A stretch of 64,000 nt of DNA from Chiloscyllium plagiosum (GCF_004010195.1 NC_057755.1:1663306-1727305), one strand, 5' to 3'; positions 1 through 57,062 are shown, counted from the stretch's first letter. Notes: generated by a model from the letters alone, not told the origin. Program-made: numbers and translations.

Positions 1-1810
1 CTTTCTCTGTGTATATTTGCCTTGCTCTGTCTCTCTCCAGTCGATGTTGTTCTGTTGCTCTCTCTCTCTGTCTGCCTCTGTCTCCTTCTGTGTCTATCGT
101 TCTTTGTCACTCTGTATCTCGTGCTCTGTCTCTTTCTCTCATTGCGGCCTCTGTGTTATTTTCCCACATTCAACTTGTCAGGCGATTGTTGTCTCAGTTT
201 AGTACATGCTCACTGTAATTAGCTCAAAACACTTGCGCCCAAGAGGTGATTTCGCAGACTCCAAAAAGCACAAGTATAGCCGGTAATAAGTTGACACATC
301 ATTCATTACATTTCTATAAATGAGGCTCCCTCCATCTCCGGAACATTGATCTTCCCCCTCTTTGCCTTCCTGTACCTATGAGAACTGTATTGTTAATGCG
401 TTTCCCTTTCCTTGTTTGTGGGTCTCTATGTGGCTCTGCGTTGGGTTTGCTTCATTGCCATTTTGGGAATGTTACTGCATGTGAATGCCCCTCGGTTTTT
501 GTGTTTGAGTGTGTCCTTGGGTATGACTCATTAGGAGTGTGTTTATGCATTTATGTGTAGGTTTCTACTTGTGCTTATTCGGAAGTATTTCGGTGACTAC
601 AGATTCATGCGTTTATTTATTTGAGTACAGTATTCAGTCTATGTGAGAGTGCTTCCGTGAAGGAGAGTGTTTTAATATGGGGTTACAGTGTTATGGTTGC
701 ATGATTCTGCTTCTATGTGTGTTACTATCATCATCTTATGGTGGTTCTGTGAATCCTTGTCTGTGTGTCGCGGAGTGTAGGTATATTATTGCATGAGTGC
801 GGGTGCGTCTGCTTGGCTGTGCTCCTGTTTAAGTAGGTGAATGTGTTTTTGAGATGGTGCCTGGCTGGCCGTCTTTGTGTTGAGATCTTTCTGTGCCCGC
901 AAGCAGGATGTCTTTGTGCCAATGTCTGGGTATGTCTCTGCCTGTTTCTGAGTGTCACTCCATGTCTGTATCTAATTGTGTCTTTGGTTCTGTAACTGTG
1001 TTTGAATGCGCTCATTTATGTCTATCAGAATATTTCTGTAAGTTCTTGCACTTTGGTGTGTAATGTCTCTCACTCTGAGTTCATGTTTGTATGTGAGGAT
1101 GTGGGTGTGATTCTGTGTCTGCGTGGAGATGTGTTACCATATCACAGTATGACTGCTTTTATGTGTGCATGTGTAGACTTATTCTTATATCACAGTATAA
1201 CCCTATTTCTGATTGTGTGGCTGCGTGTGCATTATGTCTGTACACAGTATGTATCTGTATCTCTCAGTTTGTTTGTTTTTCAGTGTGTGTGCACGTGTCT
1301 CTCTGCGTGTGTGTGCACGTATGTGTGTGTGTGTGTGAGAGAGAGTGTGACTATATTAATGTGCCAATGTATGGTTGTGTTCACATACTGCAGTGTGATT
1401 GTATTCCTGTGTGATTTTGTGAGGTTGTGGGAATGTTTCTGCAGTCGGCGTTGCGTTATGTTCCACATTTGTTTTCGACTCTGTTTTTGTGCGTCTGTAA
1501 TTTTGTGCGTGCACGTGTGAGTGTATTTAGGTGTATTCCAGTTTTCATTTTTCATTATGTTCCTATATTTTTCTTTGACTGTATTTCTCTGTGTGGGTGT
1601 GTTTGTACATCAATGTACATCTGTGTGAGGCTGTGGGTGCGTTTCTGTGTTCCTTTAGGCATGGATATGTTTCTCTCTCAGCATGAGATTCCCCCTCATA
1701 AAAACAAGCAAGAAAAATCTACAGCACGTCACAGTGCACAGATTGCTCACAAACGTACATTTCTGGGAACCTGGGAAAGATCCAAGTATCTGTACCTCCT
1801 GAACAGTGAA
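1..1810. repeat. CT-rich then TG-rich low-complexity module with a conserved terminal block (copy 1 of 3)
   Basis: CT tract (1-190) and degenerate TG-rich tract (about 380-1670). Ends in ...cacgtcacagtgcacagattgctc..., also seen near 36150 and 39010. The Cys/Val-rich ORFs here are artefacts of low complexity. Confidence 0.8.
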
Positions 1811-1964
1811 AGCTGAACTGTTGCTTCTGTTCACAGGCCTACGTTATGAAAGGATGGACAGAAGCTCTTTTGTGAATGTTTGAACCAAACTTGTATAAAT
1901 ATTGTTTTATGTTGGAGTTGCTTGTGTCTCTATATAAATATTATTATATATTGGATCACAAAGC

Positions 1965-2275
1965 CATGCAAATTAGGAGCAGATCTAGGCCATTTAGCTC
2001 ATCGAGTTAGCAATGGCATTTAAACACGAGTGGTCTGTTTCTCAATCCCAGTCTCCTGTATTCTCCTTGTAACAATTGATCCCCCTACCAATCAACAATC
2101 CCAGAACTCTGTCCTAAATATGCTCAATGTCCTGGTGACCACAGCCCTCTCCAGCAACCAATTTCATAGATTAACCACCCTTAGACTGAAGAAATTCATC
2201 CACATCTTCGTTCCAAAGGTCGCCGTTTCACTCTGAGGCTGTGCTCACAGGTCCTAGTCTGTCCTACATGTCTAA
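1965..2275 (-). mobile_element. Decayed CR1 LINE 3' fragment
   Basis: aattaggagcagatctaggccatttagctcatcgag and atttcatagattaaccaccct resemble the reverse complement of the CR1 3' ends seen elsewhere in the window. Confidence 0.55.
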
Positions 2276-2554
2276 CCAGCTGACAAGCAGAAGGTGAAAT
2301 GGAAGGATTCTCCTCAAAAGGAAGTACAACGCTCCTTTGGAATACTGTATCAGGACTGATTGGAATTAGTGGACTGGACCATGTTCGAATCCTCAACACT
2401 TTTGGATGGAACTGCAGTCCCAGCGGCGGCCGGATGGTCGGCAGCACAGAGCCGCGGTGATCACACGTTCACGTTTGTCGTGAATGATTCGGCTGGGATA
2501 CCCAGTCTCTCGTTACTGTGGCGCAGAACACATATTCTGGAATGGGTAGGGGCG

Positions 2555-3660
2555 GGGAGAGAATAATTGAAGAATACTGTTAAAAGGGTGAGGGTTAAAT
2601 GCAAATAGAGATAGGGTTAAAGATTGTAATTAACACATAATTCAATAAAGAATAGTGGGGGGATTGTTCAATATACAATAGGAGCAGGCTAAATAGAGGC
2701 TAAAAGAGAGCGAGATGAATATAAAGAACGTAGTGTTGAAGACAGAGCAGGAAGAAGATTTCATAGAAAGTAATAGTGAGATAAGTATATAGAGAGTAAG
2801 AGGAAGAATTTTGATTACATGGGCGCCGGGGCAGGGTTGATATGGGGAAATATGTAGCGATTATAATGAGATAAGATGGATCTTATTGAATATGACTTCC
2901 CTGATTGGGGCTTTTAACTAGTCTAATCAGGGGTCCTGGCTGACAGCTATAAACAGGAATGTCCGGGATTGAGCTCACTCAAGGAATCAGCTATGTGCTA
3001 GCTGGCACAGTGTCATATACTGTGCATGTTTAAAATCAGTAACTTGATTACGGGTTACCAAAGGTTTTGTAACGTGAGAGGATTTAATATAGAGAAACAG
3101 GGAGAGTGTTGAATAGAGGGGAGTACAGTGAGAATTATGTTAAAAGGAAATGAAGTGGGGTTAATATAGTGTAATAGAGAAAGAACAAAACAGACAAGAA
3201 GAGAAGGGAGTTGAATACAGGATTATACGGAAAGACTTAAATGCAGGAAAAATGAGAGGGTTAAATACAGAATGGAGAGGATTAAACTAAGAGGAGGCTA
3301 TTTGGTGACCAATAGGGAGATAACTGAATACAGAGGCAGGGTTAAATTTTGTAGTCTTAAATATCCGTTTAAATAGGGCGATTTCAATGAGGAATTATGG
3401 TGAGAGGGTTAAATGTAAAGTAAGAGGAGCAGTATTAAATAGATATTAATAGGGAAAGGGTTGAAATGAAGGGAAGAGAGAGGTTGTTAAAGACAATGGA
3501 ATATACAGGATCAATTATAGTTGAAGGTAGGATTAAGTGAAGAGTAATAGGGGAAGAGTAATTGCAAACTAATAGGGAGACAGTAAAATATGGGGCAATT
3601 GACAGAGAAGACTGAATGCAGATATTAGATTAAATGAAGATTAATAGGGAGAAGCTACCA
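2555..3660. repeat. Purine-rich degenerate minisatellite (unit about 25 bp, agagtaatagggagagggttaaatac-like), copy 1
   Basis: Recurrent gagggttaaat and aatagggaga motifs. Paralogous tracts at 16130-17660, 43015-43460 and, inverted, about 55990-56200. Confidence 0.7.
2862..3075 (+). mobile_element. Short solo-LTR-like interspersed repeat inside the purine tract
   Basis: ccctgattgggg...aatcaggg inverted motif plus a TATA-like tataaac. Related copies at about 16640-16820 (same position in the paralogous unit) and about 9785-9860. Confidence 0.45.
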
Positions 3661-4019
3661 CGAAAAAGTCACATCCCTTAAAATTTCCAAACCTCAATGT
3701 TGAACCTTGGCTCTTCCTCTATCCATCGTACAAATTAATTGCCTCCATTTTGCTTTGCTTTCCCGGATTACCTCTCTCCACCTCACCGACTTTTCCCTCA
3801 TTACCAATGCAATTGACTTTGAACCTCACACATGCCCACACTCCTCGCAACTTCTCTTTCCCTCCTGCCTTCGCTTTATCACGTACAGCAGTGTAGATTG
3901 ACGTAATGCCCCTTTGCTTAACGTGAGAGGGGATGAATAGCCTTCAGCTGTTCGTCTTTACAATTTCAACATGAAGTAAATTGCCTCCTCCACTTCCTGT
4001 TTTGGTCTCAAAACGGGCT

Positions 4020-4345
4020 TTTTTTATACATTCATGTACTGAGGGCTTCCCTGGTTCGCACCAGCATTTTTGACCATCTCTAACTGCCGAGAGAACAGTT
4101 AAGTGTCATCCACATTGTTGTGGGCCTGGAATCACATGTGGTCCTGACCATTCAAGGATGGAGATTTCCCTCTCTAAAGGACATGAGTGAACTGTGTTTA
4201 TTGTCATTATTAGCCTCTTTAATTCCAGACTTTTACTGAGTTCAAATTGTATCATCTGCTGTGGTGGGATTGAACTTAGGTTCCCAGAACCTGGGTCTCT
4301 TGATTGACAGTCCAGCATTAATTCCACTAGGCCATCTCTTCCACT
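4020..4345 (-). mobile_element. tRNA-derived SINE (shark-type), decayed
   Basis: Minus strand starts ggaagagatggcctagtgg (A box) ... aagttcaatccc (B box). The body agagggcagttaagagtcaaccacattg is shared with partial copies at about 5735-5850, 19215-19330 and 44020-44155. Confidence 0.6.
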
Positions 4346-6255
4346 TACTGAATGTCCTCCTCTTGTGTAGCAGACTGCAGAAAGTACTGAATACAAACCC
4401 ACAGAACTGTGGCTGTTGTAAATCAGAAAGTAAAACATAAATTGCTGGAAAATCTCAGCATGCTCGGCAGCATCTGTCAAGAGTTATCGGAGCTGAATAG
4501 TCTCCTGTTCCAGTGTAACAGTCTGGGGAAGGAACTGAATGGCCTCTCCAATTGTTGTGTTGCTTGGTGTGTCAGCATATCCACCCAACAATTGAAAACG
4601 AAGAAATGCTTTGTGCACTTAATTTAAAAAAAAAATCCGTGAAATTTTCAAGTCTCTGGCTATGTTCTCCTGTTGAAAAACATAATGAATAAAGTTTCAT
4701 TTCAGTATCTCAACATTTCAGCTCTTCACAGACAATTGGTACTATATTTCAATGTGCGTTTTATACCGTTAACCAGGGAAAGGGACAGGAATATACTGGA
4801 TAATGTAAACGTGAAACATATTTCATCTTTTTGGTAAAGAGAGACGTTATAAATTAACTGGCCAATTCTGGATGGATACTTATTACATCAAGACTGGGAG
4901 GTGTACTTTTTTTTTTGGTAAGTGACTGAGCAGGTTAGGAAGGGTTGTAAAAATCCATATAATGTCAAGTTCGAGAACAAACGTAAGGGAAATGTTGCTA
5001 AGCCATGATAATTCACTATTTCAGACACAGTTGAGGGAAACAGACATGCTTTAAGCCATTCAAAAGCATAAGTCTTGGAATGAGTCGAAATTGATTTCTA
5101 CCTATTTCAGAGCACCGCACTTAGGAAGGATGTCAATGCATTGGATCGGCTCTGGAAGGAGATTAATAGTCACAGGGACGTAGCAACTGGCCATTCAGCC
5201 CCCTCAAGCGAATGCTGCCACTCAATGGCTGATCTGCAAGTTAATTTCATACATTTTTGTGACCTATTCCTTAATGCATATGCATTAAAAAAAAACTATC
5301 TCAGATTTAAACTTAACGACTGGTCCAGCATTCACAACCGTTTGTAGAAGAGTCTTCCAAATATCCCATACATTTTCTGTGTGGAAGTGCTTCTTAACAT
5401 CTCTCCTGAACATACTGGCCCTAATTCACAGACCATGCCCCTTAGTTTGAAAATCTCCAACAAAGGGATATAATTTATCTTCATAAGCCATTCTTTTAAT
5501 TTTGAAAGAGAGCAGGACTACTTTGTACCGTCTGCCCCATACCTAAACCCCAAAAGTACAGGTATCATTCTTGCAAAGCTACTCTGTACTCCTTCCAAGG
5601 CCAATATATTCTTCCAAAGGTGTGATGCTTGGATCTGCCCCTAGTACTCCGAGTGAGATCGAACCAGGGTATTTCTTATCTGCAGCAAAACTCCTGTGGC
5701 GTTAAATGCGATGATCGCCTCACCATTTAGGAAAGAAATTATTGACCTACCCAGAGGGCAGTTAAGAGTCAACCACATTGTTGTGTGTCTTGAGTCACAT
5801 ACAGAACAGTCCAGGTAAGGATGGCTATTTCCTTCCCTAAGGGACATGGGTGAAAATTTACTTATTGATTTTTTCTCCTGAAAAAGACAAAAACAAAATG
5901 ATTAATCAAGGAGTTGACCATTTCCCTGTAGACATTAACAACACCCCCATATGCTTCTCTGTTGTACAATCTGATCTTCTTGCATACTTATTAGGCCTCG
6001 TTTTACAAAATAATCAGACATGATTAATTATTTTTGAAATAGAACATAGATAAATATGCAACTTTACAAAACCAGTTTTTCGCTCTAATATCTCGAGTAA
6101 CATAGCAGTTCTGAAATATCTATGCTTGCACTCTACCTTTAAATGCGCAATTACAGGTCGTTGAACTGGAGTGGGGGTTATTCTTTCTTCTCACAATGTT
6201 CCTGCTTCGTTTTCCTGATGCTCTCTGTGGCATCTCTCTGATTTGAGTGACTTCT

Positions 6256-6358
6256 TCCAGCGTTAATGTGCAGGTGTTGGACTGGGGTGGAGAGTGTCAA
6301 ACATCACATGACATCAGTTTATCATCCAATAGGTTAATTTGAAATCACAAGCTTTCGT
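6256..6358 (-). mobile_element. Penelope-like terminal fragment with candidate 9-bp TSD
   Basis: Reverse complement of the 8240-8340 repeat family, flanked by gtgacttct at 6247-6255 and 6359-6367. Confidence 0.55.
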
Positions 6359-6959
6359 GTGACTTCTGATCTTTTATCGATTTATCTCGGCCATTTCAGA
6401 CGCAGTGGCTTAGCAGTGTTATAAGGTAACAACGTAAGTATCATAGTTTAAAATCATCTTCTATTTTAGGAAGGACGTTACATAAAAACGTAGTGGATAT
6501 TTTATTTTCCTGTTCTTTAATTGATCCGTGTCAAAAAGCAGCTCTCCTGAAACTCAGGTCTACTTTTCCACCGACAACCTTGTTGGAATATCTCAACAAT
6601 AAATTCAATGTTCAGTCAAGGTGAAGGCTTGCATATATCTCTGGATTGATTGACATTGAATACTACACGCTTCTTGATTTAATATCTCAGTTCCATTGTA
6701 TTATTAATGTCAGTTCAATGCAATCAAACAAGATATTGGGTTTTCCTATCTGGGCCTACCACGCCAACTCCACTACCGATACCAGTTTTCCTGTTCCAGG
6801 TTCATAACACTGCTCCTGTAGACACCACTAATGCCATCTTCCTCCAGTGACACCGCCACAAGGAAGAGAAGATAAAGGTGTAGACGAGAGAGAAAAGAAG
6901 AAAGAAAGATGTGACCAGCCTGGAGATCGGAATCAAATGGGCTCAGAGTACTGAACGCT

Positions 6960-8640
6960 ACCTACCCTGTCAACGCCTGCCAACCTAAAACAAAAATTCA
7001 TGAGGACGTGGACAAGGGACATTCACGACGGCTCCAGTGCTTCTCCACTGAAGTGAGACTGGAGAGGTTCGGATTTGTTTTGGTAAAATGCTCCGATGGC
7101 AAGTCAGTGTTCTTCTCTGGCCACTGCCTCCTGCTGGAATCTGAACGTGAAACTGCTGATCCCAGAAAACATGGAGGATATTAAAAAGGAGAATGATGAG
7201 TGGAAACTCAAGAGGTCTTTATTCTCAAAGGTATTCTGAAGATGAGACAGAAACGGAATGAACTGTCCAAAATACAGAAAAGCGTGCATAATCCTCGCCT
7301 GCTGCAGAGAATTTCCAGGAGGTGAAGAGCCAGCTAGCCTCGCTGTGTACGTCAGAAGCCTCAAGATAATCTCCCCATCCAATGTCCACACTGTGGTGTA
7401 GGATGAGACATGCTCACGTTTGGTGTTCCAGAAATTGCACAGGGTGTGCTCTGTGCTCAGAGCCTGAAGGAAGAAAATGGTTCTGTAACATTATCTCAAC
7501 CTGATATCCTGAGGATGAGCAAATCCTTTTGTGCCAGACTTTATGACACGAAGCACACGAATAGCCCCGCCTCCTGGTCATTCCTTGCTGTCATGTAAGT
7601 CTTGGACGACAGAAGACGGGGGAAGCTGCACTAACCGTAATCTCTGTATGTGCTGACCAAGGCTCTCATGTTCTTCAAAAAGAATACAATTCACAGAAGA
7701 GACGGTATACTAGCCGAGTTGTATTCGATTCTGGGAGACTTGATTGGTCATGACCTGCTGGAAGTGGACAACAGTATGCTTCTAACAGCTAGCCTTTTAG
7801 AATCCATGAGGAAATGCATCAAACCCCTCATTTACAATCAGAAGGGGGAGAGGGACGACTGACGATCAAGTTCGTTGCTTCAAACAAATTAAAATGATTT
7901 GACTAAGGTCATTAGCAACCGGGTTAGTACTGGTTTGGGATCAGTGATTCACCCCGAACAAACCTGATACCTCAATAATATATGCGCGAAGTGATAAAGT
8001 TACTGATGATATGTCACGTTTATATTTATTATTTGTGATGATGCATGAGGTATTTGGACAGAAATAACACAGGAAAAGGACTGAATTATTAGATCTGTGT
8101 TAGATCTAACAGATGAAAGGCTTAACAGACAATCAATTTTTCAATGTATAATTTCAGTTACATTACACTGCAAATGTTTGCTATGTATTCTGTGTTACGA
8201 TCGAGCCCTCCACTATCACCTGATGAAGGAGCGTCGCTCCCAAAGTTAGTGTGCTTCCAATTAAACCTGTTGGAATGTAACCTGGTGTTGTGTGATTTTT
8301 AACTTTGTACACCCCAGTCCAACACCAGCATCTCCAAATCCTGATCAGTACTGTCAGCCTCAGATTTTTCCAGGACAGAATCACATGTGCGCAGGACAGG
8401 GGAGTTGGAATTCTGCCTTATCAACCAAGACCAGAAGGTCTTTGAAAGGTCGTCACACACATACATGTGGGATGTGCTCTCAAAGTGGGCTTTTGGGACG
8501 GATTACACAAATGAATCCGACTGCACTGCACCAATATTATTTGTGCAGCCTCAAGGAATGGTTGGGAATCAGAAAGCTTCCAAATCAGACCTTCACTCAG
8601 GCAGGGCTGCCAATTCTCACCTTTCCTGTCGCATTGTTGA
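6960..8640 (+). mobile_element. Decayed Tx1/L1-clade LINE ORF2 remnant, interrupted at about 7967-8340
   Basis: Translations KNTIHRRDGILAELYS (KSPGxDGLxxEFY-like), VIHPEQT and LINQDQKVFERSSHTYMWDVLSKWAFG (LDQEKAFDR-like RT motif). Many stops. Confidence 0.7.
8097..8340 (+). mobile_element. Penelope-like terminal repeat fragment with mutated hammerhead motif
   Basis: cacCTGATGAaggagcgtcgctccCAAAgttagtg at about 8217-8252 (GAAA mutated to CAAA). Same family as the intact minus-strand copy at 9512-9680. Confidence 0.7.
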
Positions 8641-9511
8641 CCTGGAGGCAACTGAATAATTGTTACAATCATTCATGCCTTTCTTCCTCTTCAGTAATTA
8701 TCTATCCACCGAGAACTTCTTTACTAAGGTTCCTCAGTCCACCATTGCTCATTTATGTATGGATCCTTGATTTAGATTCAGGACCCGAGTTATAGTGTCA
8801 CATTCTTCATTCTCCATCTTAATAAGCAAATCAAGTGTTATAAGATAACTTTTCCCTAATACAATAATTTTTGTAATTTCATGCTATTTCATTATGTGTG
8901 TAATTCCTGCAGAAATTATGTTAACTTGTTGCATGCTTACGACTGTTCTCTTATACCAATTCACATCTGTGAGATCTAATAATTCAGTCCTTTTCCTGAG
9001 TTATTTCTGTCCAAATACCTCAAGCATCATCACAAATAATAAATATAAACGTGACATATCATCAATAACTTTATCACTTCACGCAGATATTATTGAGGTA
9101 TTTCTACAATTGAAAACTAGCACTTCAGAATGAACACTGTCCCTGAATCCATGAGGCATGTGAGGGAAGTGTTTCATCCTGAAGATTAGGATTCTGAAGC
9201 ACGGATCCAAAACACCTTTTTGTTGCTTTTCTCTTTCACGCAGATTTTCTACATCACGCGGCAAGCTTAATTTGCCTCCTAACTGAGATTGATGCATGTT
9301 TTCCAACACTCTGACTAGTTTGAGTAAATATTCTACAATGGCAGTAATATTTTTCCCCAGAAGAGTAGCAGTCCCCATCCAATTTAAAAAAGACATTCGC
9401 ACCAACCCCAGTAACCTGACCAGCAATCGAGACGTCCAAGGCCCTTCCTCCTGGAACCAATGCTTCCAACCACACGGTCACTGGCCTAATGAGTACTCAG
9501 AGTAACAATTT

Positions 9512-13642: not shown

Positions 13643-15114
13643 CTGTTACTGCAGTATAAGGACATACGTAAGAATCAGATGGGAAGGACTAATGTCATTC
13701 TACATGAAGTAGACAAAGGGAATAGTGCCGTAATAAAAAAAAACATATCGGCTTAATCCTGTTAAAGCCAGACAGGTCGAAATGAAGTTGGAGGCCATGC
13801 TCGATGCGCACATCAACGAACCAAGCCAGAATGAGTGGGGTTCACCAATCGTCTCAGTTCCCAAACTGACGGGACTCAATGATTTTGCGTGGATTTTCAG
13901 ATGGTCCATGCTGCTATAAAATCGGATTCATATCCAATTCCTATATTGGAGGACTGTATCGATAAATCCTGAAAAGCCAGTTACATTACCAAGTTGGACT
14001 TAATACGAGGTCACTAGCAGTTGCATTTATCAGAGACGGCATAAAATGTTTTTGCATTTGTCAAGTAGGCTATATCGGTTTAAGATAACGCCCTTTGGAA
14101 TGAAGAATGCGCATGTCACGTTCCAAAGGTTCATGAACAGAGTTGTGGCAGGGTTAACAAACTGTGCAGTCCATTTGGATGATGTAGTGCTCTTTAGTAA
14201 GTCCTGGAAAGATCACATGGTACAGTTGGGAGAGCTCTTTGAATGACTATGAGAAGCAAAACTGGTGATAAACTTAAATAAAACTGAATTTCCGAAAGCA
14301 GAGGTGACCTATTGGGGTTATAATATCAGTTATGGAAAGTTTTTGCCACGAACGATGAAGGACATCACAGAATTTCCACGACAAATGTTCACAAAAGCGT
14401 TGCTTAGTGGGTTCAATCGGAAGATTGCACCAAACCTCACAGTGCAGTGACACCTTTAACCAAGTGGCAGAAGACGAACACAAAGTTTCGGTGGATTGAA
14501 CAATGTGAGGAAACATTCGACCATTTGAAATCAACATTCACCACCAAAACCAGTTTTAGCTAAACCAAATGATTCAAAATGTTTTAAAGTCACGATTGAT
14601 GCTAGTGACATACGAGTTGGAGCTGTACTCCAACAGGAAGATGAGAATGGGATTGAATAGCCAGTCCGGGTTACTTTTCGAAGAAGAGCAGCATCAAACA
14701 GATCGAAAACGCAGTATTCGGTTTGGTACTGACTTTACAACATTTTATTGTGCATGTCACAAGCAATGTGCTGGAGATGGTTGCATACACGAATCACAAT
14801 TGTCTAACATTCTTCGAACGCTTTCAAGACAAGAATATTTCATTGGAGTCTTATGTTTCAGATTTTTAAATTAAAGATCGTACATGTTGCTGATCATAAG
14901 AATACAATCGCAGAGGCTTTATCACTGATTTAAGTGATAAAGTGTAGATGAAATTAGTTTTTTTTAATGTTGTATGCATGCTCCCCCACTCCCTGACCTC
15001 TCCGCCCCCACCCCACTCCGGTCTATCACCCTCACCTTGCAATTCCAACGCCCCTCCCCCAAGTCCCTCCTCCCTACCTTTTATCTTAGCCTGCTGGACA
15101 CACTTTCCTCATTC

Positions 15115-15142
15115 CTGAAGAAGGGCTTATGCCCGAAACGTC
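15115..15142 (+). ncRNA. Minimal hammerhead ribozyme motif (family B), tandem copy 1
   Basis: CUGAAGA-A-GGGC-UUAU-GCCC-GAAA-C-GUC with palindromic ACGU and a GUC cleavage triplet. Helix I is weak (auuc/gauu). Confidence 0.6.
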
Positions 15143-15517
15143 GATTCTCCTGTTCTTTGGATGCTGCCTGACCTGCTGCGCTTTTCCAGCAACACATTTT
15201 CAGCTCTGGTCTCCAGCATCTGCAGTCCTCACTTTCTCCTCGAAGATGTTAACCTACTGCGAATCCTCTTACAAGGATGTCTTCTTGAAGAAGCTCTCTT
15301 CCTCCCTCTACAAGGATTTCAGTGAGTCCCTCTCTCACTGCACACCCCAGGTCATCTCCTCTGCATCACCGCCTTCCTAACCTGCAATCTTCTTCCTGAC
15401 CTCTCCGCTCCCACCCCACTCCGGCCTATCACCCTCACCTTGTAATTCCAACGCCCATCCCCCAAGTCCCTCCTCCCTACCTTTTATCTTAGCCTGCTGG
15501 ACACACTTTCCTCATTC

Positions 15518-15545
15518 CTGAAGAAGGGCTTATGCCCGAAACGTC
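15518..15545 (+). ncRNA. Minimal hammerhead ribozyme motif (family B), tandem copy 2
   Basis: Core identical to 15115-15142, 403 nt downstream. Confidence 0.6.
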
Positions 15546-16129
15546 GATTCTCCTGTTCCTTGGATGCTGCCTGACCTGCTGCGCTTTTCCAGCAACACAT
15601 TTTCAGCTCTGATCTCCAGCATCTGCCGTCCTCACTTTCTCCTCGAAGATTTTACAGCTGGCTGGTTTTGAAATTTGTCGTTTGGTAAATATTAATAGGG
15701 AATTTTATCGGACCAATGTTACAGAAAGGCATTCGAATAAAATTAAAAGGAAGGAGCTGTAAGTAGTTGTTAGTTAACTATTCTCTGTTATACCTTAAGA
15801 AATAAAGTTGTTATCCTTATTTTAAATAGAGTTTGGCCTCTCCGATTTTCACAGATTACTGTACACGATAAATCTTTTCTGTCAGGCTGGTTTTAATGAA
15901 ACAGGGCAGTTTATCTGTGTCGTTATACTAATATCAACCTCACAACATGAAGTTCACATATGTAGTCTTGCTCTCTATTTCCGTCCTTCATCAGTTCTCA
16001 CACCAAGTTCCATTTCCCCATGAGGATATGCCCCGTTGACAACAATGACTCCTGCTCAAACATTTCTAGATTTTGACACTTCTGCATCCCAGTCACTGGT
16101 TATTATGGGAAACAACACATATTCTGGAA

Positions 16130-17660
16130 GGGGGAGAATAACTGAAGAGCATCAGGGAAGACAGAGAGTGAGAGAGAGTGTTAAAGGTGGTAAGAGGCAG
16201 AGACTTCAACAGACAGTAATGGGGATAGGATTAAATAGACAATAGTAAAGAGAGGGTTAAATAGACCGTAAGGGGGAGAGGGTTAATTAGAGGATAAGGA
16301 GGGTTGGATTTAATGCAAAGTAATATTAGAGGTGCAAATGTAGTTATATAGAAAGAAGATTAATTGAGCGAGGATAGCGTTAACTACGGGGAAAGTGAGA
16401 GGAAGTAAAATCATAAAGCAGGGACATGTGTAATGCGAAGACATTTCAATATAATGGAAGAGAGAAATTGAGAAGGAGTGCAATATAGAGAAAATTGAAA
16501 GCAATGCAAGCGGGAGATGGTTGAAGACAGAAAAATAATTTAATGTAAAGTAATTGGGGAGATGTATTTAGGGAGTAAGAGGAAATTTGTTGATTACAGG
16601 GGCACAGGGCGAGGGCTAACACAGGGAAAGCTGCAGTAATTGTAATGAGCTGGATCTAATTGAATATAGATTGCCTGATTCGGACAGTGAACTTAAAAGG
16701 AGTCCTGGCTGACCGAGTGTCAGCAATTCAGGTCACTCCAAGAACCAGCTTGATCAGTGTGATTTACTATGCACGCGTAACTGTAGGATGAGTTAGTGAT
16801 GAGTTACCAGTTTTTGTAGAAAAGAAGAGAATTTAACACAGTACTCGGGAGAGGAGTGAATAGAGAATAATAGAGACAGTGTGGAATACAGGGGGGCATG
16901 GAGAGAGTTAAGTACAGGGGAAAGGGAGGGGAGTTAACGCTGAGTAATAGAAAAGGAAAAGTAATTCAAGAGTACTGAGTTGAGGCTTGAACACAGGAGA
17001 GCACGGAGAGAATTAAGTAATGGGAAGAGGAGAGGGTTCAATACAGAGTGGAGATGATTAAATCTAAAGTAGCAGTGAAAGGGCTAATTAGAGAGCAACA
17101 GGCCGAAAACTGAATACAGAAATGTTTAAAGATTGTGATGGGTGGGGTATAAATTGAGTGGGTTCAGTGGAGAGAAGTTGTGAGAGAATTAAATATAAAA
17201 CAATGAGGAAATGATTAAATAACGAGTAACAGGAAGAGGATTGACAACAGGGTAAAAGAGGGATGGTTAAACACTGGGAAATATGGAGCATTAACTACAT
17301 AAAAAGACAGGAATAACTAAAGATTAATAGGTTAGGATTAATTGCAGGCTAACAGGAAGCGGATTGAATACAGAACAGGGAATAGGCAGGACTGAATACA
17401 GATAACAGCTTGAATACAGATAACAGCTTAAATACAGTGTATCAGGGAGTGGCTTAAATGCAGAGAGAGAGAAGTTAAAAGGCACAGTAATCAGGAGAGA
17501 ATTAAATACTGGGAAGTGTGTGGGTTACATACAAGTGAAAAGAGAGCAAGTAAATGCAGATTAACAGTTTTGCATATAGGGAAATATAAATGCTTAACTA
17601 CAGGGAAATAGAGTGGAATACATACAGTGCAATAGCGATTGGAGTTGGGGTTGAATGGTC
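16130..17660. repeat. Purine-rich degenerate minisatellite, copy 2
   Basis: Same motifs as 2555-3660, preceded by the same acacatattctggaa anchor. Confidence 0.7.
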
Positions 17661-18294
17661 TCCTTGTGTTCCTGTGGACAGGCTGAAGAAGGCGCTGAAT
17701 GGCCTCTTCCTTGTCCAATGCTGTTGGGTATGTTTATGCCAACAAGAGGCTCATTCATTCATTGAAAACTAAATTGAATTTAAAAAATGTCAGTGAAAAT
17801 TTCAAATCTCTAGCTATCTTTTCTTCCTATTTCAAATGATATCTGCTTTCAGTGTTCCGAATATTTCAGTTGTGCATAGTAAATTAGCGGGATATTTCAT
17901 GTGAATTTTATACCATTAACCAGTGAAGTGGGCAGGCAAATGACAGGTAAAGTTGGAAGTAAGAAAACTTCGTTGTTTTTGGTAAACAGAGATAACATAA
18001 ATTAAGTCACGCAATTCTGGAAAGGACATCATAACATCAAAACGTGGAGGGTTACACTACTTCTATGGAAAGTGACTGGGAAGGTCGTGTTCTTTGTACA
18101 AAAAGGTACAAAGTCGAGTTGAATTCAAAGGAAAGAGAAACGTTATTAAACCTGTATAGCTCAGCAGTAAATCACAGTCAGGACTATCAGTCCAGATTTG
18201 AACTCTTCAAAATCGAATGGCTTGTATTGGTTTAAGACTGGGTTCTGCCCTCTCCTGAACAGTGCAGGATGTCAATGCAGTGGCTTCTTTCGGA

Positions 18295-41509: not shown

Positions 41510-42010
41510 GTTTTACACAGTATATGTATAATATATATTATGCATTGTTGTATAGAGCTGTTTATCTGTGCATAAATATTATTATGCACTGTGGCAGACC
41601 GATTTAAGATGTACATATTATGCTGCATTAGAACCATCTGCGTTTCTTAATAAATATTGCTTTGTATGGGAACTGTTTGTTTTTAATTAGAAGTATTGTT
41701 GCGTATGGTAACTGTTCATGTTCTTATTAAAATCCTGTTTTGTTTTTTAGCTGTTCATGCTTTTTCATAAGTATTGCTGTGCCTTTCAACTGTTATGGAT
41801 TAATATAAGTATCGTCATGTATTGGAGTGGTACAAGTTAATATATGAATTATTGTATTGTGTTGTGTTTATATTCATTTAAATATTGTCATACGTTGGAA
41901 CAGTTTGTGTTTATGTGTATGTTCTGTCATGGAAATGTTCATTTTTGTAAATAAATATTGTTGTATCGTGGAGCAGTTCTTGTTGATATATAAACATTAA
42001 TTTATGTTAA
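41510..42010. repeat. Degenerate AT-rich minisatellite (unit about 39 bp, aaatattg...gaactgttt...)
   Basis: Repeated aa(a/g)tattg...ctgtt units. Remnants at about 1890-1955 and, inverted, about 56860-56980. Confidence 0.6.
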
Positions 42011-42200
42011 ATTTGTGCCTATCTCCTACTTATCAACAGTACTGTGTCTGACCATTGGATGTGAATGCTGAGCTCCTCCTGTGCTTTATAATGGACCAGC
42101 TGTTCCAACGTTTGCTGGAGGTGCAGCTGCGCAGAGCAGCATTGGTCATGTGTTAGCATTTATGGATAAGAAATAGACAGGGACACGTGATCTCTCATTA

Positions 42201-42994
42201 TATCAATGTCAGTTTGCTCGCAGGGCTGGAATGTTCATTTTCAGACGATTCGAAATCATACCAGGTAACATCATCAGTGATTATCCAGTGAAGCACTGGT
42301 GGCATGGCCCGCTTTTTATTTATGTGTTTAGGTTTCCTTGGGTTGGCGACATCATTTCCCAATGTGATGTAATTTGCTGTGGTAATGTCATTTCCTGTTC
42401 TTTTTCTCAGAGGGTGGTAAATGGGATCTAAGTCAATTTGTTTGTTGATAGAGTTCCTGCTGGAATGCCACGCATCTATGAATTCTCGCATGTGTCTCTG
42501 TTTGGCTTCTCCCTGGATGGATGTGCTGTCCAAGTCGAAGTGCTGTTTTTCTTCATTTGTATGAGAAGATACTTGTGAGAGTGGGTCATGTCGTTTTATG
42601 TCTAGTTGAGGTTCATGTATCCTGTGGCTAGTTTTCTGCCTCTTTGTCCAAAGTAGTGATTGTGACAGTTCTTGCAAGGTATTTGTAAATGACGTTGCTT
42701 ATGCCTGTTGTTTGTATAGGGTATTTAAAGTCTATGAGCAGCTGTTTCAGTCTGTTCGTAAGTATGTGGACTACCCTGATGCCATTGCTAAACCACCACA
42801 AGAAATGACGTCACCAAACCAAGCAATCCTAAACAAAAAACTGAAAAGCAGGCCATAACACCTGTGCTTCACCGGAGGCTCAATAATGATGTTACCTAGT
42901 ATGGTGCCGAAACCTCTGAAAATGAATCTTGCAACTCATTGAGCAAACTTATATGGAGAACTTCAACCTGAGCAATAAATCTTCTCAAAATTTA
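42201..42994 (-). mobile_element. Penelope-like element (family C): GIY-YIG C-terminal remnant with inverted terminal repeats and 9-bp TSD
   Basis: Minus-strand RIHEPQLDIKRHDPLS...REFIDAWHS...INKQIDLDPIY. About 42205-42359 is an inverted copy of about 42802-42955. ctctcatta at 42192-42200 and 42995-43003. Decayed ctgatga...gaaac motif in both arms. Confidence 0.85.
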
Positions 42995-43014
42995 CTCTCA
43001 TTACATATTCAGGG

Positions 43015-43460
43015 AACGATAATTGAGAGAGTGTTAAATACAGATAGAAATGGTGTTAGAGATTACAATATGTAGAGAATTCAATAGAGAATAATGTGGA
43101 GAGGATTAAAATGGCAATAATAAGGTGAGGGTTAAATGCAAAGTAACAGCGAGAAAATTAAATACAAGGGAACAAAGAGAATGGTAAATACAGGAGAAGA
43201 CAATGGAGTTCAATAAAAAGTAATAGGGAGAGGTGTAAATGGAGAGTTATAGAAAGAAGTATGAATATAGTGGAGTAGAGAAAGGGTTAAATGCAGTCAA
43301 AAATGATAGGATTAAATGCAGAGTTGACAGGATCAAATTGAGAGTAATAGTGACAGGGCTACTTAGAGAGAAGTAGGGAGAAAGTCAAATACTGATAGAG
43401 GGAGGGTAAATGTTTGTAATGGGGGCAGATTAAATGATGGCAATGGCTTTGGGAGGAGAT
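43015..43460. repeat. Purine-rich degenerate minisatellite, copy 3
   Basis: Same motifs as copies 1 and 2. Confidence 0.7.
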
Positions 43461-45379
43461 TAATAGTCAGAAAAAGCATAAGAACAGTCCTTTCAGCCTC
43501 TTAAGCCTGTTCAGTTATTCAGTGGCTGATATGTAAACTAATTTCAGATTCCTGTCTTTCAGCCTTATCACTTTAATACCTTCGCTTAACAAAATAAAAT
43601 CTATCTCACCTCTAAAGTTAACAACTCGTTCAGAATCCACTGCTGTTTGTGGAAGAGATTTCCAAACATTCACCACCCTTTCTTGCTGACGTGCTTCCGA
43701 AAATCTCCCCTGAATACAATGGATCTAATTCTCACAATATGTCCATTTGTTCTAGAATCCCCAAACAGTGGAAATAACTTATCTTTGCCTATCCTGACTT
43801 CTATTTAATACAGAAACCAGACCTAATTTGCGTAATTTCCCTACATATTTAAAACCCTAAAGTCCTGGTATCATTTTCGCAAATATATATTGTACTTCCT
43901 CAAAGGACAATACATTCTTCGTAAGTTGTAGTGTCTAGATCTGCTCACAGTATTCTAAGTGGAACCTAACCAGGATTTAGTACAGCTGAAGCATAACTCT
44001 ATGGCTTTATATGTGATTAGTGGTCGCTGACCAAGCCAGCATTTATTGCTCACCTCAGAGGGCAGTACAGAGTCAAGCACTTTACTGTGAGTTAGGAGTC
44101 ACACATCAGTTAGACCACGTGAGAATGGCAGTTTCCATCCGAAAGGACATTAACGAAAATGTTCTTATTTTCTCCTGTAAATGCTAAGGTATAAAATAAT
44201 TAATCAACGTTTTGGCTGTTTCACCATGGCCATTGACAATATCAATACACGCTTAATTTTGGTATGGACTGATTTAGTCGTTCCCTTAATTGGCCTTGTT
44301 TTTCACTAATGAGACACGGTTGACTACAATACATGGTTCATTATATTAGAATAGGTAAATACATAGATGAGTATATAACTTTTCAAAACTGGCCTTTCCC
44401 TATAATATCCTAAGTAAACTTGCAGTTCTGAAGTGTCTATGCCAGTTTAACATCTGCTTTGGGAGTAGTTGATATTCAAAAATTGTATATTACTTGATTG
44501 CAGTTCATTAAACTGGAATTGGGTCTGTTCTTCCTACTCCTAAGGTTGCTGCGTCTTGGTCCCAGAGTTCTCTGGAGTTTGTGGGATCCTTCTGATATGA
44601 GTAGCTTGTTTTAGTTCGTTATCGGGGTCATTTCTGAGTATGCTGGCTGAGCTGTAGTTTGATGAAACAAAGTAATTAATATTTTATAAATTGAGTTTCT
44701 ATTTTGGGAAGGGTGTTACAAAAGACAGTTTAGATATTATAATGCATATTTTTTCATTAAGTCAGCTCTAGGAGCCTAGTGTCTCAAAAACAGTCAGCTT
44801 TGTTGTTCCATCGGAAACTTTGTGGCAGTTTCTCATCAACAACCCAATCAATATTCATTCAAGGTGAAAAGCTTGCATATAGGTCTAGCTTCATTCAATT
44901 TGACAGTGAATGCTGCAAGCTTTCTGGCTTACTAGCTCTGTTCAACTGTCTGATTAATATCAATCCAATGTAATCAATCAAAATAATCAGTTTGTGAATT
45001 TGGGCTGACTCGCTACCACTGCCAAGATCCCCATACGAGGCACACAACGCCGCTACCGCAGACGCCACTGATACTATCTTCCTCCACAATCACAAAAAGG
45101 AAGAAAAGATAAAGATGAAGGCAAACGAGAAAAGAAGAAAGAAGATTGTGATTGGCCGAGCGATTGGCCGGTTCCTGCAACAGCCCAAAGATATGCAGCT
45201 TAGGTGAATTGGCCTTGCAAAATTGCCCAGAGTGTTCAGGGGTATGTGGATTAGGTGCATTAGTCGGGGGTAAATGTAGGGTAGAGGAATGGGTCTGATT
45301 GGGATACTCTTCAGAAGGTCAGTGTGGAATTGTTGGGCCAACTGGCCTTCTTTCACACTGCAGGGAATCCATGAATTTG

Positions 45380-50685: not shown

Positions 50686-51557
50686 TCATACACCATTAAT
50701 TGACAAGAATGATAGATAGATAACAAGAGTTCAACGATAAGGGAGTGAAATGACACAAACCCAGCTTTATGTCTTAAAACTTAAAATGAGGTGAGAGTTG
50801 AGTTTTGCAGAGAAGAATAAAAAGTGTTGCATCTTAAGTATATGTTGAGGATAGTTTTCAGCGTTATTTTACTTGTTTCAAGTAATTCCTTAATTGGAGA
50901 AGTTACATTCCATTGAGAAGCTGTATTTGTGCAAGGTGAGGAATTCTGTTGTGATGCTGAAATTGTTAATACCTACGTGGTGTCGTCTCAAGTAACCAAC
51001 TACCACCACATCCTGGAAGAGCCGCTGTTAAACAAGGAAACTACATCCCTGTTTTGAGGAGAGCAGTTTTCAGACAGACATTGACAAGCAGAATTTAATT
51101 TCCAAATGAACATTGTCAAGTGAAGGATGACACTGAAATAGTGGAATGGATCTCTTTTGGGTATCATTCCTGGCATACAGGGCGGCACAGTAGTTCAACT
51201 GTCATCCCAACTAGACCCACAGAGTGTGGGTCTAGTTGGGATGGTCTTCTGAGGCTTGGTGTGGACCGCTGGGCCGATTGCATGCGGGTTTCAATGGCTT
51301 TACTCGATATGCATGTCCAATGATTGTTATTGATCGATGGAGATTTGTATTATCCAGTGAAGCTCAGTTGCAAAAATATTCTGTCACAACTAGGGAGTTA
51401 CTCACTGCTGTCACCTCTTCGTTCGAAATCTTTAAAAATTAATTGAGTGACTTTGCAATGTGACACTCCCCCAGCTGATGCCAGCTGGGAAAAAGTGTAA
51501 GGCTGTGCGTTTCTATCACCTCAGCATTTACTACGGAGAGATTGGCTGCATAAAGTG

Positions 51558-53900
51558 ATGCACGCAGGAAATATAGTTCCCATTGAAAATGTTTGACATG
51601 ATGCTCCTGATGGTAACAATTCCCGGTAAGTGCTTTGCATCATTGAATTTGTGTGAATATGCCTGAGGACAATCGAATGTTTGACACTGCTATTGTCACT
51701 TATACTTGGACATGTTGCAGCCACCCCCACACAAGGGCAGGCAATTGGTTATGTAGTCTCCAGGGATCCAGCAGAATTCCCATCATCGAAGATTCTAATG
51801 GATTCCAAAAGAATTGCTGGGAAACTCAACTTCCCCCTGGATCATTCATTGCTTCTGGAAACCTTCGAGAAATCTCATTTTTAATTAGAGACTATGGAAA
51901 TGTTTGATAGGATTAAGGAATGTATGCACTTTGGGAAAGGAAAAGCGATGGGCTATTTATGTAGAGAGTGCAATAATATTTAGGGTGAGTTTGGTTCTGG
52001 TTTTTGTGAGAATAAGCAATGCCCTTCTCTGTCCATCTGAAGTAAATATTTAACTTGTAGGTATTTGTGTAAACAATTTCTTTTAAAGCCTGCTTTTGAA
52101 GTCTGACCATAGGCTGAGTGATTTTGTGCACGATTGAACTTCTATTTATTTTTGACTGTTTGCAACCCCGAATGATATTAATGGAGATTCCAATATTGTT
52201 CGAGAGTTCTGCAATCTGAGATTAAGAAAAACGCCCTTAACTCAGAAAGCTTCACTTTCTCGCTTACTATGTTTTGTTATTTGTTTTAGTGAGAGAACTG
52301 GGAATGTTAAAGTGCATTGCAGAGGGCTGTGGAAACCGTCCAGTTGCTTTTTGAAGAAACTGCATGGCGCTTTGTAACTTTTGAAATGCATGAAATAATT
52401 CTTCGTGAGAAGGAATAATTGTAACTCAGTTTAGAACATAAGAATTCATTAGTGATATCACTAGGTTAATATTGCTTATCCTGCTAAGTTATTGTCATTA
52501 TAAAATAAAGTGTTTTCATTTTTAAACAAATGTTGTGAACTCAAATTCTGTTCATCAACTGACTGGGTATTCAGATTATCTGTTTAATTGTTCATTGCCC
52601 CTGAAATGATCAAATTACGAGAGATTGAGCAACAACAGATATTTATCATTATCTATTTTATTGGAAATGATTTGTGTAGCCATGTTCAATAATTGCAGTA
52701 GTGAATCATCTGTATTGTTTTGCATGATAAACTTTATTTATAAAATATAAACAGATACATTGAAAACTATTTCTGTCAGACAATACAGAGAATATCATAA
52801 ACAAGTGACACTTACCAGTTTGAAATTTGCATTTTTGCCGACTCAAAATACACGCCAAATTGCAGCATTTCCTAAATTAAACCAATAATTATTCACTTTT
52901 CAAAACAAGCTATGAGTGGCTCAGTGATCTAACAGATCCTCATTTAATCATTACAGAGAACACTTAGTCAGTGTTTTGTGCCTTTACCAAAGAAACCTAA
53001 GTTTCTCTGTTCTACTTACATTCTTTGTCAAATATTTACATCTTCTCAAGGGTAACAACTCATAATTTTGGAATATAGTGCCCAGAACCACCTCCAGTCT
53101 GTTAATAGCAGTCGAACCAAATCATCCATAGTAGATGAATACCAACACTTTGAATCTCAATTCTCTTTCAGAAAAATGGTTATAGCACTGTAAATGTTCA
53201 TCCACGTAGTTTTTAAAGGTTGTGAGGTTTTCCGCCTCAACTACCCTCCAAGCAGTCAAGTATCAGACCTCACCGCGCTCTAAGTGAAAACCTTTTCCTC
53301 TAATCCCCTCTCAACCCCTTTCCTTTCTCCCCAAAGAAAATTCCACCTTGTCCTCTGTAAATTCTCTGCGCACACTTATTTAAACCCAAGAATGAGAAGC
53401 TTCAAAATGAGTTTACCTTGGAGGTACTTTTTTTAAAAACAGTTGACATCTGAACCATCCCAACTGATCGAGTTAAGTGCTCAGATCTTCGTTGCTCTGT
53501 CGGCAGAAATGGACAACAGTTCATCAGTAATTTGCGATTTGAATTTTACCTACTGTTTCTTTTAGTTAATTTTCTGGTGATTTTTGTTCCCACATAGTGA
53601 AAATGCGACCTTTCTAACAGCACAACACGCTGCCTGCTGGCTATGTTAGTGTTGGGGCTGGAAATGTGTTGCTAGAAAAGCGCAGCAGGTCAGGCAGCAT
53701 CCAGGGAACAGGAGAATCGACGTTTCGGGCATAAGCCCTTCTTCAGGAAATGTTAGTGTTGGATCAACTGTTCGTTGACACTGATGTCATACTGAAGCAA
53801 CGCAAACACTTTTACTTCTCAAGGTGTTTCCTGGACATCAGCTATGTATGCAGTGCTACCTTTGTCCTGATAAATGCAGCCACAGACTGTTTCATCTGTT
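51558..53900 (+). pseudogene. GPR139-like pseudogene (exon 1 51558-51625, 1940-nt intron, exon 2 remnant 53566-53900)
   Basis: Exon 1 is 68 nt from the ATG to the conserved donor, so it is out of frame. Exon 2 reads VNFLVIFVPT**KCDLSNSTTRCLLAM (TAG TGA at 53595-53600), then a 94-nt insertion, then ...CFLDISYVC...AATDC. Homology is lost before the DRF motif. Confidence 0.9.
53656..53749 (-). mobile_element. 94-nt Penelope terminal-repeat insertion with intact hammerhead core (53719-53746) and 13-bp TSD, inside pseudogene exon 2
   Basis: atgttagtgttgg at 53643-53655 and 53750-53762. The insert is the reverse complement of about 15112-15205. Confidence 0.9.
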
Positions 53901-54149
53901 TGGAGATAATGAGTGCTGCAAATGCTGGAGATCATAGTCGGGAGTGTGGAGCAAGAAAATTAAAGCAGATCACGCAGCATCTGAGGTGCAGGGGAATTTG
54001 GTGTCAGCCCTCCAACCATGCTCCAATATTGGCAGCTAGTTGAAATTGATGAGCAGTATCTCCAGCAGCAGTGGTTCGCTTTAGTCACTGACAAAAAAAA
54101 ACAACACTGCACAGTCTTTTTTATGCAGAGGCTTTAGCTCTTTTGGATT

Positions 54150-55349: not shown

Positions 55350-55982
55350 CTTGCACCACCTCCACACGGATCTCCGTTGGCACGCCTAACCCCGCCCTCA
55401 CGCCTACTTGTGGAACGTTTCAGAGAACACCTCTGGGACACCCGGACCAATCAACACAACCACGCCAAGGCTCAACACTTCAACTCCCCCTCCCACTCCA
55501 CGAAGGACATGCAGGTCCTTGGACTCCTCCATCGCCAGACCATAGCAACACGACGGCTAGAAGAAGAGCGCCTCATCTTCCGCCTCGGAACCCTCCAACC
55601 ACAAGGGATGAACTCAGATTTCTCCAGTTTCCTCGTTTCCTCTCGCCCACCTTGTCTCAGTCCCAACCCTCGAACTCAGCACCATCTTCCTAACCTGCAA
55701 TCTTCTTCCTGACCTCTCCGCCGCACCCCACTCCGGCCTATCACCTTATCACCCTCCCCTTAACCTCCTTCCGCCTATCGCATTTCCAACGCCCCTCCCC
55801 CAAGTCCCTCCTCCCTACCTTTTATCTTAGCCTGCTTGGCACACTTTCCTCATTCCTGAAGAAGGGTTCATGCCCGAAACGTCGATTCTCCTGCTCCTTG
55901 GATGCTGCCTGACCTGCTTCGCTTTTCCAGCAACACATTTTTCAACTCTGATCTCCAGCATCTGCAGTCCTCACTTTCTCCT
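55350..55982 (+). mobile_element. Penelope-like element (family B): GIY-YIG C-terminus plus terminal repeat with hammerhead motif (55856-55883), abutting a CR1 fragment at about 55085-55348
   Basis: ERFREHL...AQHFNSPSHS...RRLEEERLIFRLGTLQPQGMN, then CUGAAGA-A-GGGU-UCAU-GCCC-GAAA-CGUC. Confidence 0.88.
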
Positions 55983-55989
55983 GACTCTG

Positions 55990-56534
55990 AGACTATATTA
56001 AATCCTCACCATTTTCTGTCTTTAACCTCCCCCTTTATTTTAATTCATCTCTCTCCAAATTACCCTCCACTAAACCTTCTCCTTTCGTCTATTTGATCTT
56101 TTCTCCATTATTCTCTGTTGAATTCTCTTCAGATTACAATCATTAACTCTCTCAAAGTTGATGTAACCCTTTGTTTTCCCCAGTGCTGTTTAAACATGCG
56201 CACCAGCACCCCTCAACACCAGAATATGTGTTTAAGCTCCGCAATAACGAGAGATGCAGCGTCCTTCCCAAATCATTCCCCACTACCTCTAACATGTGAC
56301 AGCTGCTGCTCTGTGCTGCAGTCTCTCTGGTCGGCGCTGGCACTGTAGATCCATGTCAAAGTGTTGGCGTAGCTCAACAGCAGCCCCACACTGTTAGACA
56401 CAGTAATACTGATGGGAAGAAAAAGTGCACAATTTAACATGAACAAACACAATACTGATATAAAAATAGGAAGAGCTAAAACGCAAAAAAACGATTCACA
56501 TATAAATTTAACAGTTATAATATACAATTATATA

Positions 56535-56591
<57 letters not shown>

Positions 56592-57060
56592 TCAAACATC
56601 TTCAATTCAAAAGGGGTGGCACAGTGACTCACAGCGCCAGGGACCTGAGTTCTATCCCAATCTCTGGTGAATGTCTGACATAGTTTGCGCTTTCTCCCCA
56701 TTTCTGCTTATACTTCCTCTCCTGATGTACGTTATTAAGTTAGAGGTCTGGATGGGCTGCTGTTCAGGGGTCGGTGTGCACTTGTTAGGCTGAAGGGTCT
56801 CTTTTCGCCCTGTAGGAATTCTAAATTTAAGTTGACAGCACTCAATTCGAATTCACAATAGCGTTTCACATAAACACAATCAGCTCCAATACAACAATAC
56901 TTGTATAGGCACAAATAGCTCCACATATAACAGCACATAATGTATATTATACATATAAAACATGAACTCATGTGTATATGAAGGAATTGGAAGATGCAAG
57001 TGAATGTGCTGTTGCTAAATTTGCAGATTATACAAAAATATGTGGAAATGAAAGTTGGCA
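55990..57060 (-). repeat. Inverted partial copy of the cluster unit (AT minisatellite, GC-rich block and start of purine tract)
   Basis: The reverse complement of 56215-56375 aligns with 2390-2540 (caacacttt...cagcacagagc...tctctcgtta...acacatattctgg). The reverse complement of 56860-57060 aligns with about 41290-41600. Confidence 0.7.
56529..56590. repeat. (TA)n microsatellite
   Basis: Read directly. Confidence 0.95.
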
Positions 57061-57062
57061 CA

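Follow-up and report, generated by a model that had tools for sequence, protein, structure and literature searches.

A large, apparently undescribed chondrichthyan family of class A receptors at an old tandem duplication in Chiloscyllium plagiosum

We analysed one strand of a 64,000-nt stretch of the Chiloscyllium plagiosum genome (GCF_004010195.1, NC_057755.1:1663306-1727305; the whole stretch is hereafter the window, with positions counted from its first letter). [quoted passage not shown] The family is an expansion of one jawed-vertebrate orphan class A GPCR from the neighbourhood of GPR139 and GPR142, and amphibians and sturgeon apparently keep that orphan as one gene. Across the expansion the signalling side is fixed and the pocket is varied and polar; the ancestral site was GPR139-like. 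At the locus itself, a unit of about 12 kb was duplicated, leaving one gene, one pseudogene and two remnants.

Results

Gene A has its ATG at 20188 and, when exon 1 (20188-20254) is joined to exon 2 (30009-30883), yields 942 nt with a single stop, encoding 313 amino acids, the protein that an earlier note on this DNA had described; exon 1 was located by homology and the splicing is predicted. A one-exon gene from the open reading frame (ORF) at 29927-30883 was rejected because it has no ATG ahead of the splice acceptor. The only Pfam match at E<=0.01 is 7tm_1 (50.3 bits; cut-off 30.5), and the protein carries N1.50, D2.50, DRF, P5.50, W6.48, N7.49, Y7.53, C3.25 and a cysteine in the second extracellular loop (ECL2). 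P6.50 and P7.50 are absent from gene A and from the common residues of 64 paralogs from the horn shark, Heterodontus francisci. The predicted model (pLDDT 61) resembles class A structures, with template-modelling scores of 0.6-0.7 and none singled out, and gene A as a single query retrieved no PDB chain at E<=0.001. We conclude that gene A is, as read from its sequence, an intact two-exon class A GPCR gene.

The open frame and canonical splice sites favour a functional gene. A second related species differs from the gene A locus at 36 of 519 intron bases and 8 of 290 exon bases (p 0.014), and the slower change of the exon suggests that purifying selection acts on gene A. In the closest species, contigs are identical to gene A in five of the eight pieces listed; in these comparisons only the longest pieces were listed, and orthology of short contigs is assumed. 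One single-cell run from the closest species, of which about 2/100 was read, gave 396 reads, nearly all on a downstream long interspersed element (LINE) and none over most of exon 2, which is not evidence either way; a second run gave 0 reads and is no test. Summed contig depth is 43,469 over the region of transmembrane helix (TM) 3 vs. 12-30 on unique pieces, a figure that is not a copy number but points to very many related loci, and read depth indicates that the 3' end of the intron is also common to other loci. A metagenome scan gave 247 pattern matches, of which 0 were confirmed.

Database searches with gene A gave 2086 candidates, 974 clusters of which match at E<=0.001. The best 120 of the 974 are all from sharks or rays (120/120), and nearly all carry the automatic name 'probable GPR139'; 64 come from the horn shark, 32 of these from one 74.5-Mb contig (both tallies counted by hand). 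Nearest to gene A among these 120 are bamboo and epaulette shark genes, at 63-68% identity. A 49-member family profile matches 132 representatives at 1e-30, and the 17 of 20 representatives that could be named in a large tree are all chondrichthyan, one being a chimaera. The chimaera (Callorhinchus) member nests inside the expansion, and the expansion was under way before chimaeras split from sharks. Across sharks and rays 130 positions are near-invariant, hundreds of genes have open frames, and the tandem clusters, many paralogs and pseudogenes of a chemosensory repertoire are all present. Database models often lack the true first exon: by pattern, the canonical exon-1 junction appears in 53 of the 120 (13 were not parsed), and other models begin in LINE frames, run on through the intron or join adjacent genes. 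No OR, TAAR, V1R or V2R is among the best 60 of 83 PDB matches, and the earlier proposal that sharks have a large receptor repertoire of uncharacterised function outside those four families is borne out by the 974 clusters and by the 7tm_1-only match of gene A. We found no description of the expansion in the literature searched, outside which most subscription journals lie, and no family description in the supplements searched, including the available portion of PMC13188829.

A mostly non-adaptive expansion, in which a small gene in duplication-prone repeats multiplies by unequal crossing-over and most of its copies, weakly expressed, drift with only signalling residues held, would accord with a window rich in remains of LINEs and short interspersed elements (SINEs), with three dead copies out of four, with the high deviance of gene A, and with the low count of canonical exon-1 junctions, itself expected with thin RNA support. 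We regard such an expansion as improbable in view of the 130 near-invariant positions, the hundreds of open frames, the non-random layout of variation and, in related species, an exon slower than its intron.

The lineage extends beyond cartilaginous fishes. A sister gene is present in the sturgeon Acipenser and, as a single cluster per species, in 20 amphibians (25 matches among 1675 candidates); no teleost or amniote is among the 25, and the next matches are shark family genes. It is 66-74% identical across amphibians, with an almost invariant pocket. The expansion and the amphibian/sturgeon gene join at 100/99 in an LG+G4 tree of 36 rows (30 of 66 rows were dropped for speed), and the same grouping has an SH-aLRT of 99 under a mixture model. 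By these matches and trees, the gene lineage is not chondrichthyan-only; the expansion is.

A separate GPR139-like orphan (rows P0232 and P0285-P0402) occurs in sharks, coelacanth, ray-finned fishes, amphibians and reptiles, apparently as one gene per species, with fixed pocket residues Y3.33, Q5.42 and R6.51; no mammal or bird is among its best 120 of 145. Two of its models are labelled TMEM183A isoforms, which suggests that it adjoins TMEM183A. The orphans GPR210A, GPR210B and a third subtype have been placed beside GPR139/142 in gar, coelacanth and teleosts in a survey whose available text reports no shark and no expansion (Rinne et al., 2019; PMC6504862); sharks are likewise not mentioned in the available part of PMC12208981. 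The single-copy bony-vertebrate lineages found here probably overlap the GPR210 subtypes.

Human GPR139 is the best solved relative of the family profile (E 6e-15, 58 bits; next, 41). The family intron presumably lies at the same codon as that of GPR139. Family and GPR139 share a short N-terminus, the lack of a proline at 7.50, W6.48 and a two-exon gene (PMC7318219). They differ in that the profile, with 58 bits for GPR139, gives 172 for the amphibian sister; that C3.25 and the ECL2 cysteine are missing in aligned GPR139, and P6.50 is missing in most family members; that the family has many copies vs. one; and that, of the GPR139 Trp/Phe site F109, H187, W241, R244 and N271 (PMC5430874, PMC8807744), only W241 has a counterpart in gene A or in the consensus of the shark sequences. 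The two-exon structure of a GPR139 ortholog is thus found, but neither its pocket nor its conservation, which for GPR139 is 70% identity between human and zebrafish (PMC7318219). On sequence, the name 'probable GPR139' is wrong: the family is not GPR139.

The positions that vary lie mainly on the outer side of the receptor. We compared entropy among shark paralogs, taken as those nearest gene A, with that among amphibian orthologs, using a set of 27 pocket positions from general knowledge of class A receptors. Among the 64 horn-shark paralogs entropy is 1.58 at the pocket positions, 1.18 at other outer-helix positions and 1.28 in outer loops (ECL), but 0.37 in the inner TM and 0.33 in the intracellular loops (ICL; pocket vs. 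inner TM, p 5e-10). Among 20 amphibian orthologs the pattern is reversed, with 0.05 in the pocket and 0.88 in the ICL. The consensus family pocket is acidic (E2.57, D3.37, D5.39, D5.42). When the GPR139 site is transferred through the profile-PDB alignment and the motif-numbered family alignment, the residues are F, Q, W, K and N in 20/20 amphibian orthologs (F3.33, W6.48, K6.51, N7.39) and R, D, W, H and D in gene A; the shark paralogs keep only the W, the remainder being varied.

An almost fixed intracellular, G-protein-facing side combined with a varied, polar and often charged pocket would mean that many shark receptors feed one pathway, each with a different water-soluble ligand. The ancestor may have been a sensor like GPR139, responding to aromatic peptides or aromatic amino acids, and the earlier guess of amino-acid or peptide sensing gains support from GPR139 as best solved relative and from an amphibian sister that keeps its pocket residues. 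The expanded set would most likely serve to detect external chemicals, in the nose, in taste buds or in chemosensory cells of skin or gut, with any one gene expressed in few cells. We judge the case evenly balanced for a family of many ligands and one pathway that would serve in detecting water-borne chemicals. The more specific proposal, that it forms a further chondrichthyan chemoreceptor family of independent origin, descended from a GPR139-like amino-acid or peptide sensor, that numbers hundreds of genes or more in each genome and of which each cell in the nose or in some other chemosensory epithelium expresses one, we hold to be tentative and rather doubtful.

Two other roles have to be weighed. 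An innate-immune or somatosensory repertoire, like rodent MRGPRs or FPRs, would detect microbial or host cationic peptides from mast cells, granulocytes or sensory neurons. The variable-outside, fixed-inside pattern fits it equally, the acidic consensus pocket would suit cationic ligands, and sharks are reported to lack MAS1-related receptors (PMC8455134), which would leave that role vacant; set against this, the nearest solved relative is GPR139 at 58 bits, with chemoattractant receptors at <=41, and the sister gene's pocket is fixed and of amino-acid type, so that we think it unlikely. Internal or reproductive signalling (neuropeptide, gut nutrient, sperm or oviduct) would build on the parts that GPR139 and GPR142 play in neuromodulation and enteroendocrine signalling and seems to us decidedly improbable, since pocket variants by the hundred are rarely called for by endogenous ligands and the fixed pocket that it predicts is seen in single-copy relatives, not in shark paralogs. 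In its favour, GPR139 responds in the brain to L-Trp, L-Phe and peptides, GPR142 senses amino acids in gut and islets, and the testis and rectal gland of the catshark express some V2Rs (PMC11979771).

Several observations weigh against the chemosensory role and the phylogeny behind it. The pocket exceeds other outer-TM positions only at p 0.039, so the signal is largely one of outside vs. inside, which immune or somatosensory receptors would match, and helix numbering came from motifs without a confident model (pLDDT 61). The proposed functions are read from sequence. Olfactory neurons of the catshark are microvillous and express V2Rs (PMC10116579), and in the available portion of PMC11979771 none of the 50 genes most specific to a library from brain and olfactory epithelium is a GPCR. 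Chondrichthyan-only monophyly reaches 93/69, the approximately unbiased (AU) test against joining the other lineage is borderline (p 0.048), and the trees lack true GPR139/142 sequences, include unnamed outgroup rows and carry a long-branch warning. Gene A itself departs from 30 of the 130 near-invariant positions, the highest of 121 sequences (median 4; its closest relatives, 14-26), and its ratio of nonsynonymous to synonymous divergence (dN/dS) against gene B is 0.73 over 73 codons; gene A may therefore be decaying.

Self-alignment of the window, a check that the earlier note had proposed, gives collinear blocks of 63-76% identity in four places (Table 1), and the four copies named there are recovered: one intact (gene A), one pseudogene (51376-53901), one gene-less (1-6930) and one inverted (55981-57985). 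Because several blocks are of low complexity, 25 module pairs and two controls were compared with shuffles that keep local composition. Tested pairs are 69-76% identical, with z = 13-206 for TG tract, terminal, GC, purine, upstream, promoter/exon 1, intron and exon 2 pairs; the CT tract reaches z 6.6 against copy 3b, and the AT 'minisatellite' patch aligns weakly (z 5.6 and 2.2). One control gives z -1.5 and the other 15.9, the latter owing to a dispersed repeat within it that aligns over 106 columns. The claim that ordered modules recur thus stands as to order beyond composition, but no copy is complete and the AT patch is weak.

The upstream block, placed earlier at about 5200-6500, 18650-19990 and 43480-44740, lies at 5146-6499, 18629-19995 and 43433-44736. 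In profile scans of the window, promoter/exon 1, intron and exon 2 were each found only twice; intron blocks at 20255-20625, 24631-25403 and 29696-30008 are common to genes A and B. Module order is kept across copies, yet the complete set is present in none. The gene A copy starts at the GC-block tail (16088) without CT/TG, terminal and AT blocks. In the gene B copy a head-CT-TG-terminal segment is doubled (33621-36610, 36676-39465), the 4489-5144 block is missing and about 6.6 kb separates the upstream block from the promoter. Copy 1 has no promoter, exon or intron profile match between 6930 and 16000, nor any receptor match there with 121 homologs as queries. The 0.7-kb head block (33621-34340, 36676-37400) is an addition to the earlier module list, and a block at 6500-6930 and 44741-45167 is common to copies 1 and 3, where copy 2 continues into the promoter. 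A coding role for head and terminal blocks finds no support: the head blocks hold no ORF of 120 amino acids and indels occur throughout.

Most of the upstream block consists of a decayed CR1 LINE on the minus strand (tblastn E 1e-11 and 5e-11; third copy, 0.005), with a decayed CR1 remnant common to all three copies, and the purine tract is a decayed minisatellite of about 26-bp spacing. Kimura two-parameter (K2P) distance is 0.29-0.41 across all 14 non-coding module pairs, and synonymous divergence (dS) between genes A and B is 0.41. All blocks, including CR1 and microsatellites, are similarly diverged and are therefore passengers. Collinear blocks, shared old transposon remains and divergence equal to the synonymous rate are what a tandem duplication leaves: what was read as a 'modular cassette' is a tandem segmental duplication, old and decaying neutrally, and is locally ordinary. 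A meaningful cassette of non-coding modules is not supported, all of them having decayed at the neutral rate. That they are a functional unit, regulatory or mobile, copied with the gene is highly improbable: order is kept in all copies, the intron 3' end is common to other loci by read depth, and the Chiloscyllium punctatum models P0002-P0004 begin with a translated homologous intron end (12-14 of 30 residues identical to copy B), but every module has diverged at the synonymous rate, the largest is a dead CR1, Rfam matches number 0 and a complete copy exists nowhere.

A unit of about 12 kb, one two-exon receptor gene with its flanks, was tandemly duplicated long ago into at least four copies; what stands now, after retrotransposon insertions, deletions and one inversion, is one open gene (A), one pseudogene (B) and two remnants that have no gene. 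Copy divergence is about five times that to the second shark species, so the duplications would be about five times older than that split; a per-year rate for absolute dating was not found in the available text of PMC10620051 or PMC10587355. Birth and death of a clustered GPCR, as proposed earlier, is upheld, but brisk turnover is not, given this fivefold excess. Younger births within gene A's subfamily are seen in three Chiloscyllium punctatum clusters with end branches of 0.03-0.10.

Gene B is a pseudogene (51376-53901), and its exon 2 holds a young SINE between 13-bp target-site duplications (53643, 53750). Members of a young SINE family, 85-97% identical, lie at 14989-15654, 53656-53749, 53865-53997 and 55677-55982. 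Copies stand at the start of copy 2, the gene B truncation point and the inversion boundary, and SINEs may therefore have mediated these breaks.

Other mobile-element remains were also noted. The gene A intron contains L1-type retrotransposon remains on the minus strand at 20700-24400 (RVT_1, E 2e-6). After the post-upstream block of copy 1, at about 7400-7970, is a broken reverse-transcriptase-like frame that we take from its motifs to be Tx1/L1-like. A 130-bp inverted repeat, 96% identical, at 7967-8096 and 8972-9101 flanks about 1.1 kb and represents the possible termini of a young DNA transposon. A fragment with 156-bp inverted repeats (42198-42957), presumably Penelope-like, and one with a zinc-knuckle-like motif (59597-60007), presumably gag-like, have no Pfam match; transposon class names given here without a Pfam row are our assumption.

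Table 1. Position of receptor-gene parts and repeated blocks in the window.
Feature	Position	Strand	Remarks
Copy 1, CT tract 3-684, TG tract 716-1669, terminal block 1666-1830	1-1830	+	Cut by window start
Copy 1, weak AT-rich patch, old repeat fragment 2124-2395, GC block 2393-2559, purine tract 2560-3650	1891-3650	+	
Copy 1, pre-upstream 4489-5144, upstream 5146-6499, post-upstream 6500-6930	4489-6930	+	Then no gene
Copy 2, GC-block tail, purine tract 16131-17421, pre-upstream 17647-18283, upstream 18629-19995	16088-19995	+	
Gene A, putative promoter and 5' untranslated region, TATAAAT 20107-20113	19993-20187	+	Promoter function presumptive
Gene A, coding exon 1, 22 codons + 1 nt, GT donor 20255 (G/GTAAG)	20188-20254	+	By homology
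Gene A, intron, 9.75 kb, phase 1, L1-type and CR1 insertions	20255-30008	+	
Gene A, coding exon 2, second half of TM1 to stop, acceptor TTTCAG/	30009-30883	+	
Copy 3a, head 33621-34340, CT and TG tracts, terminal block 36090-36239	33621-36610	+	
Copy 3b, head, CT, TG and terminal blocks repeated in tandem	36676-39465	+	
Copy 3, AT/GC blocks 41933-42205, short purine tract 43005-43450, upstream 43433-44736, post-upstream 44741-45167	41933-45167	+	
Gene B, promoter and exon 1	51376-51625	+	TATA match lost; ATG to ATA (51571-51573); 12-nt deletion; GT donor 51626
Gene B, intron, 1.9 kb	51626-53565	+	
Gene B, pseudo-exon 2	53566-53901	+	Stops TAG TGA 53595-53600; homology stops in TM3
Inverted fragment, purine-tract start, GC block 56201-56369, AT patch, repeat 57728-57985	55981-57985	-	Repeat matches 2124-2395

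Discussion

Rodent MRGPRs and vomeronasal FPRs are precedents in which tandem expansion within one lineage turned a class A gene that was not olfactory into a repertoire for detection; they differ in being an unrelated clade and in comprising tens of genes in one mammalian order vs. a whole vertebrate class. The OR, TAAR, V1R (ORA) and V2R (OlfC) families resemble the present one in their clusters, many paralogs, pseudogenes, variable pocket and fixed signalling side, but the present family has a separate origin, 7tm_1 only, a phase-1 intron in TM1 and no V2R ectodomain. In the catshark the four olfactory families and taste receptors together make 65 genes (PMC6368271), about the number of horn-shark members in the best 120 of 974 clusters.

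Cartilaginous fishes have been described as poor in GPCRs or olfactory receptors (PMC8455134, PMC6368271, PMC10116579), with a 'relative paucity' of GPCRs (PMC8455134). A large family filed under 'probable GPR139' contradicts that paucity of GPCRs, and may bear on the paucity of olfactory receptors. The single-copy sister with its GPR139-like pocket makes the ligand question testable. If the chemosensory role is true, the amphibian gene would reveal the ancestral ligand, the chemoreceptor family would outnumber OR, TAAR, V1R and V2R together, and it would explain why so few receptors are known in animals renowned for smell.

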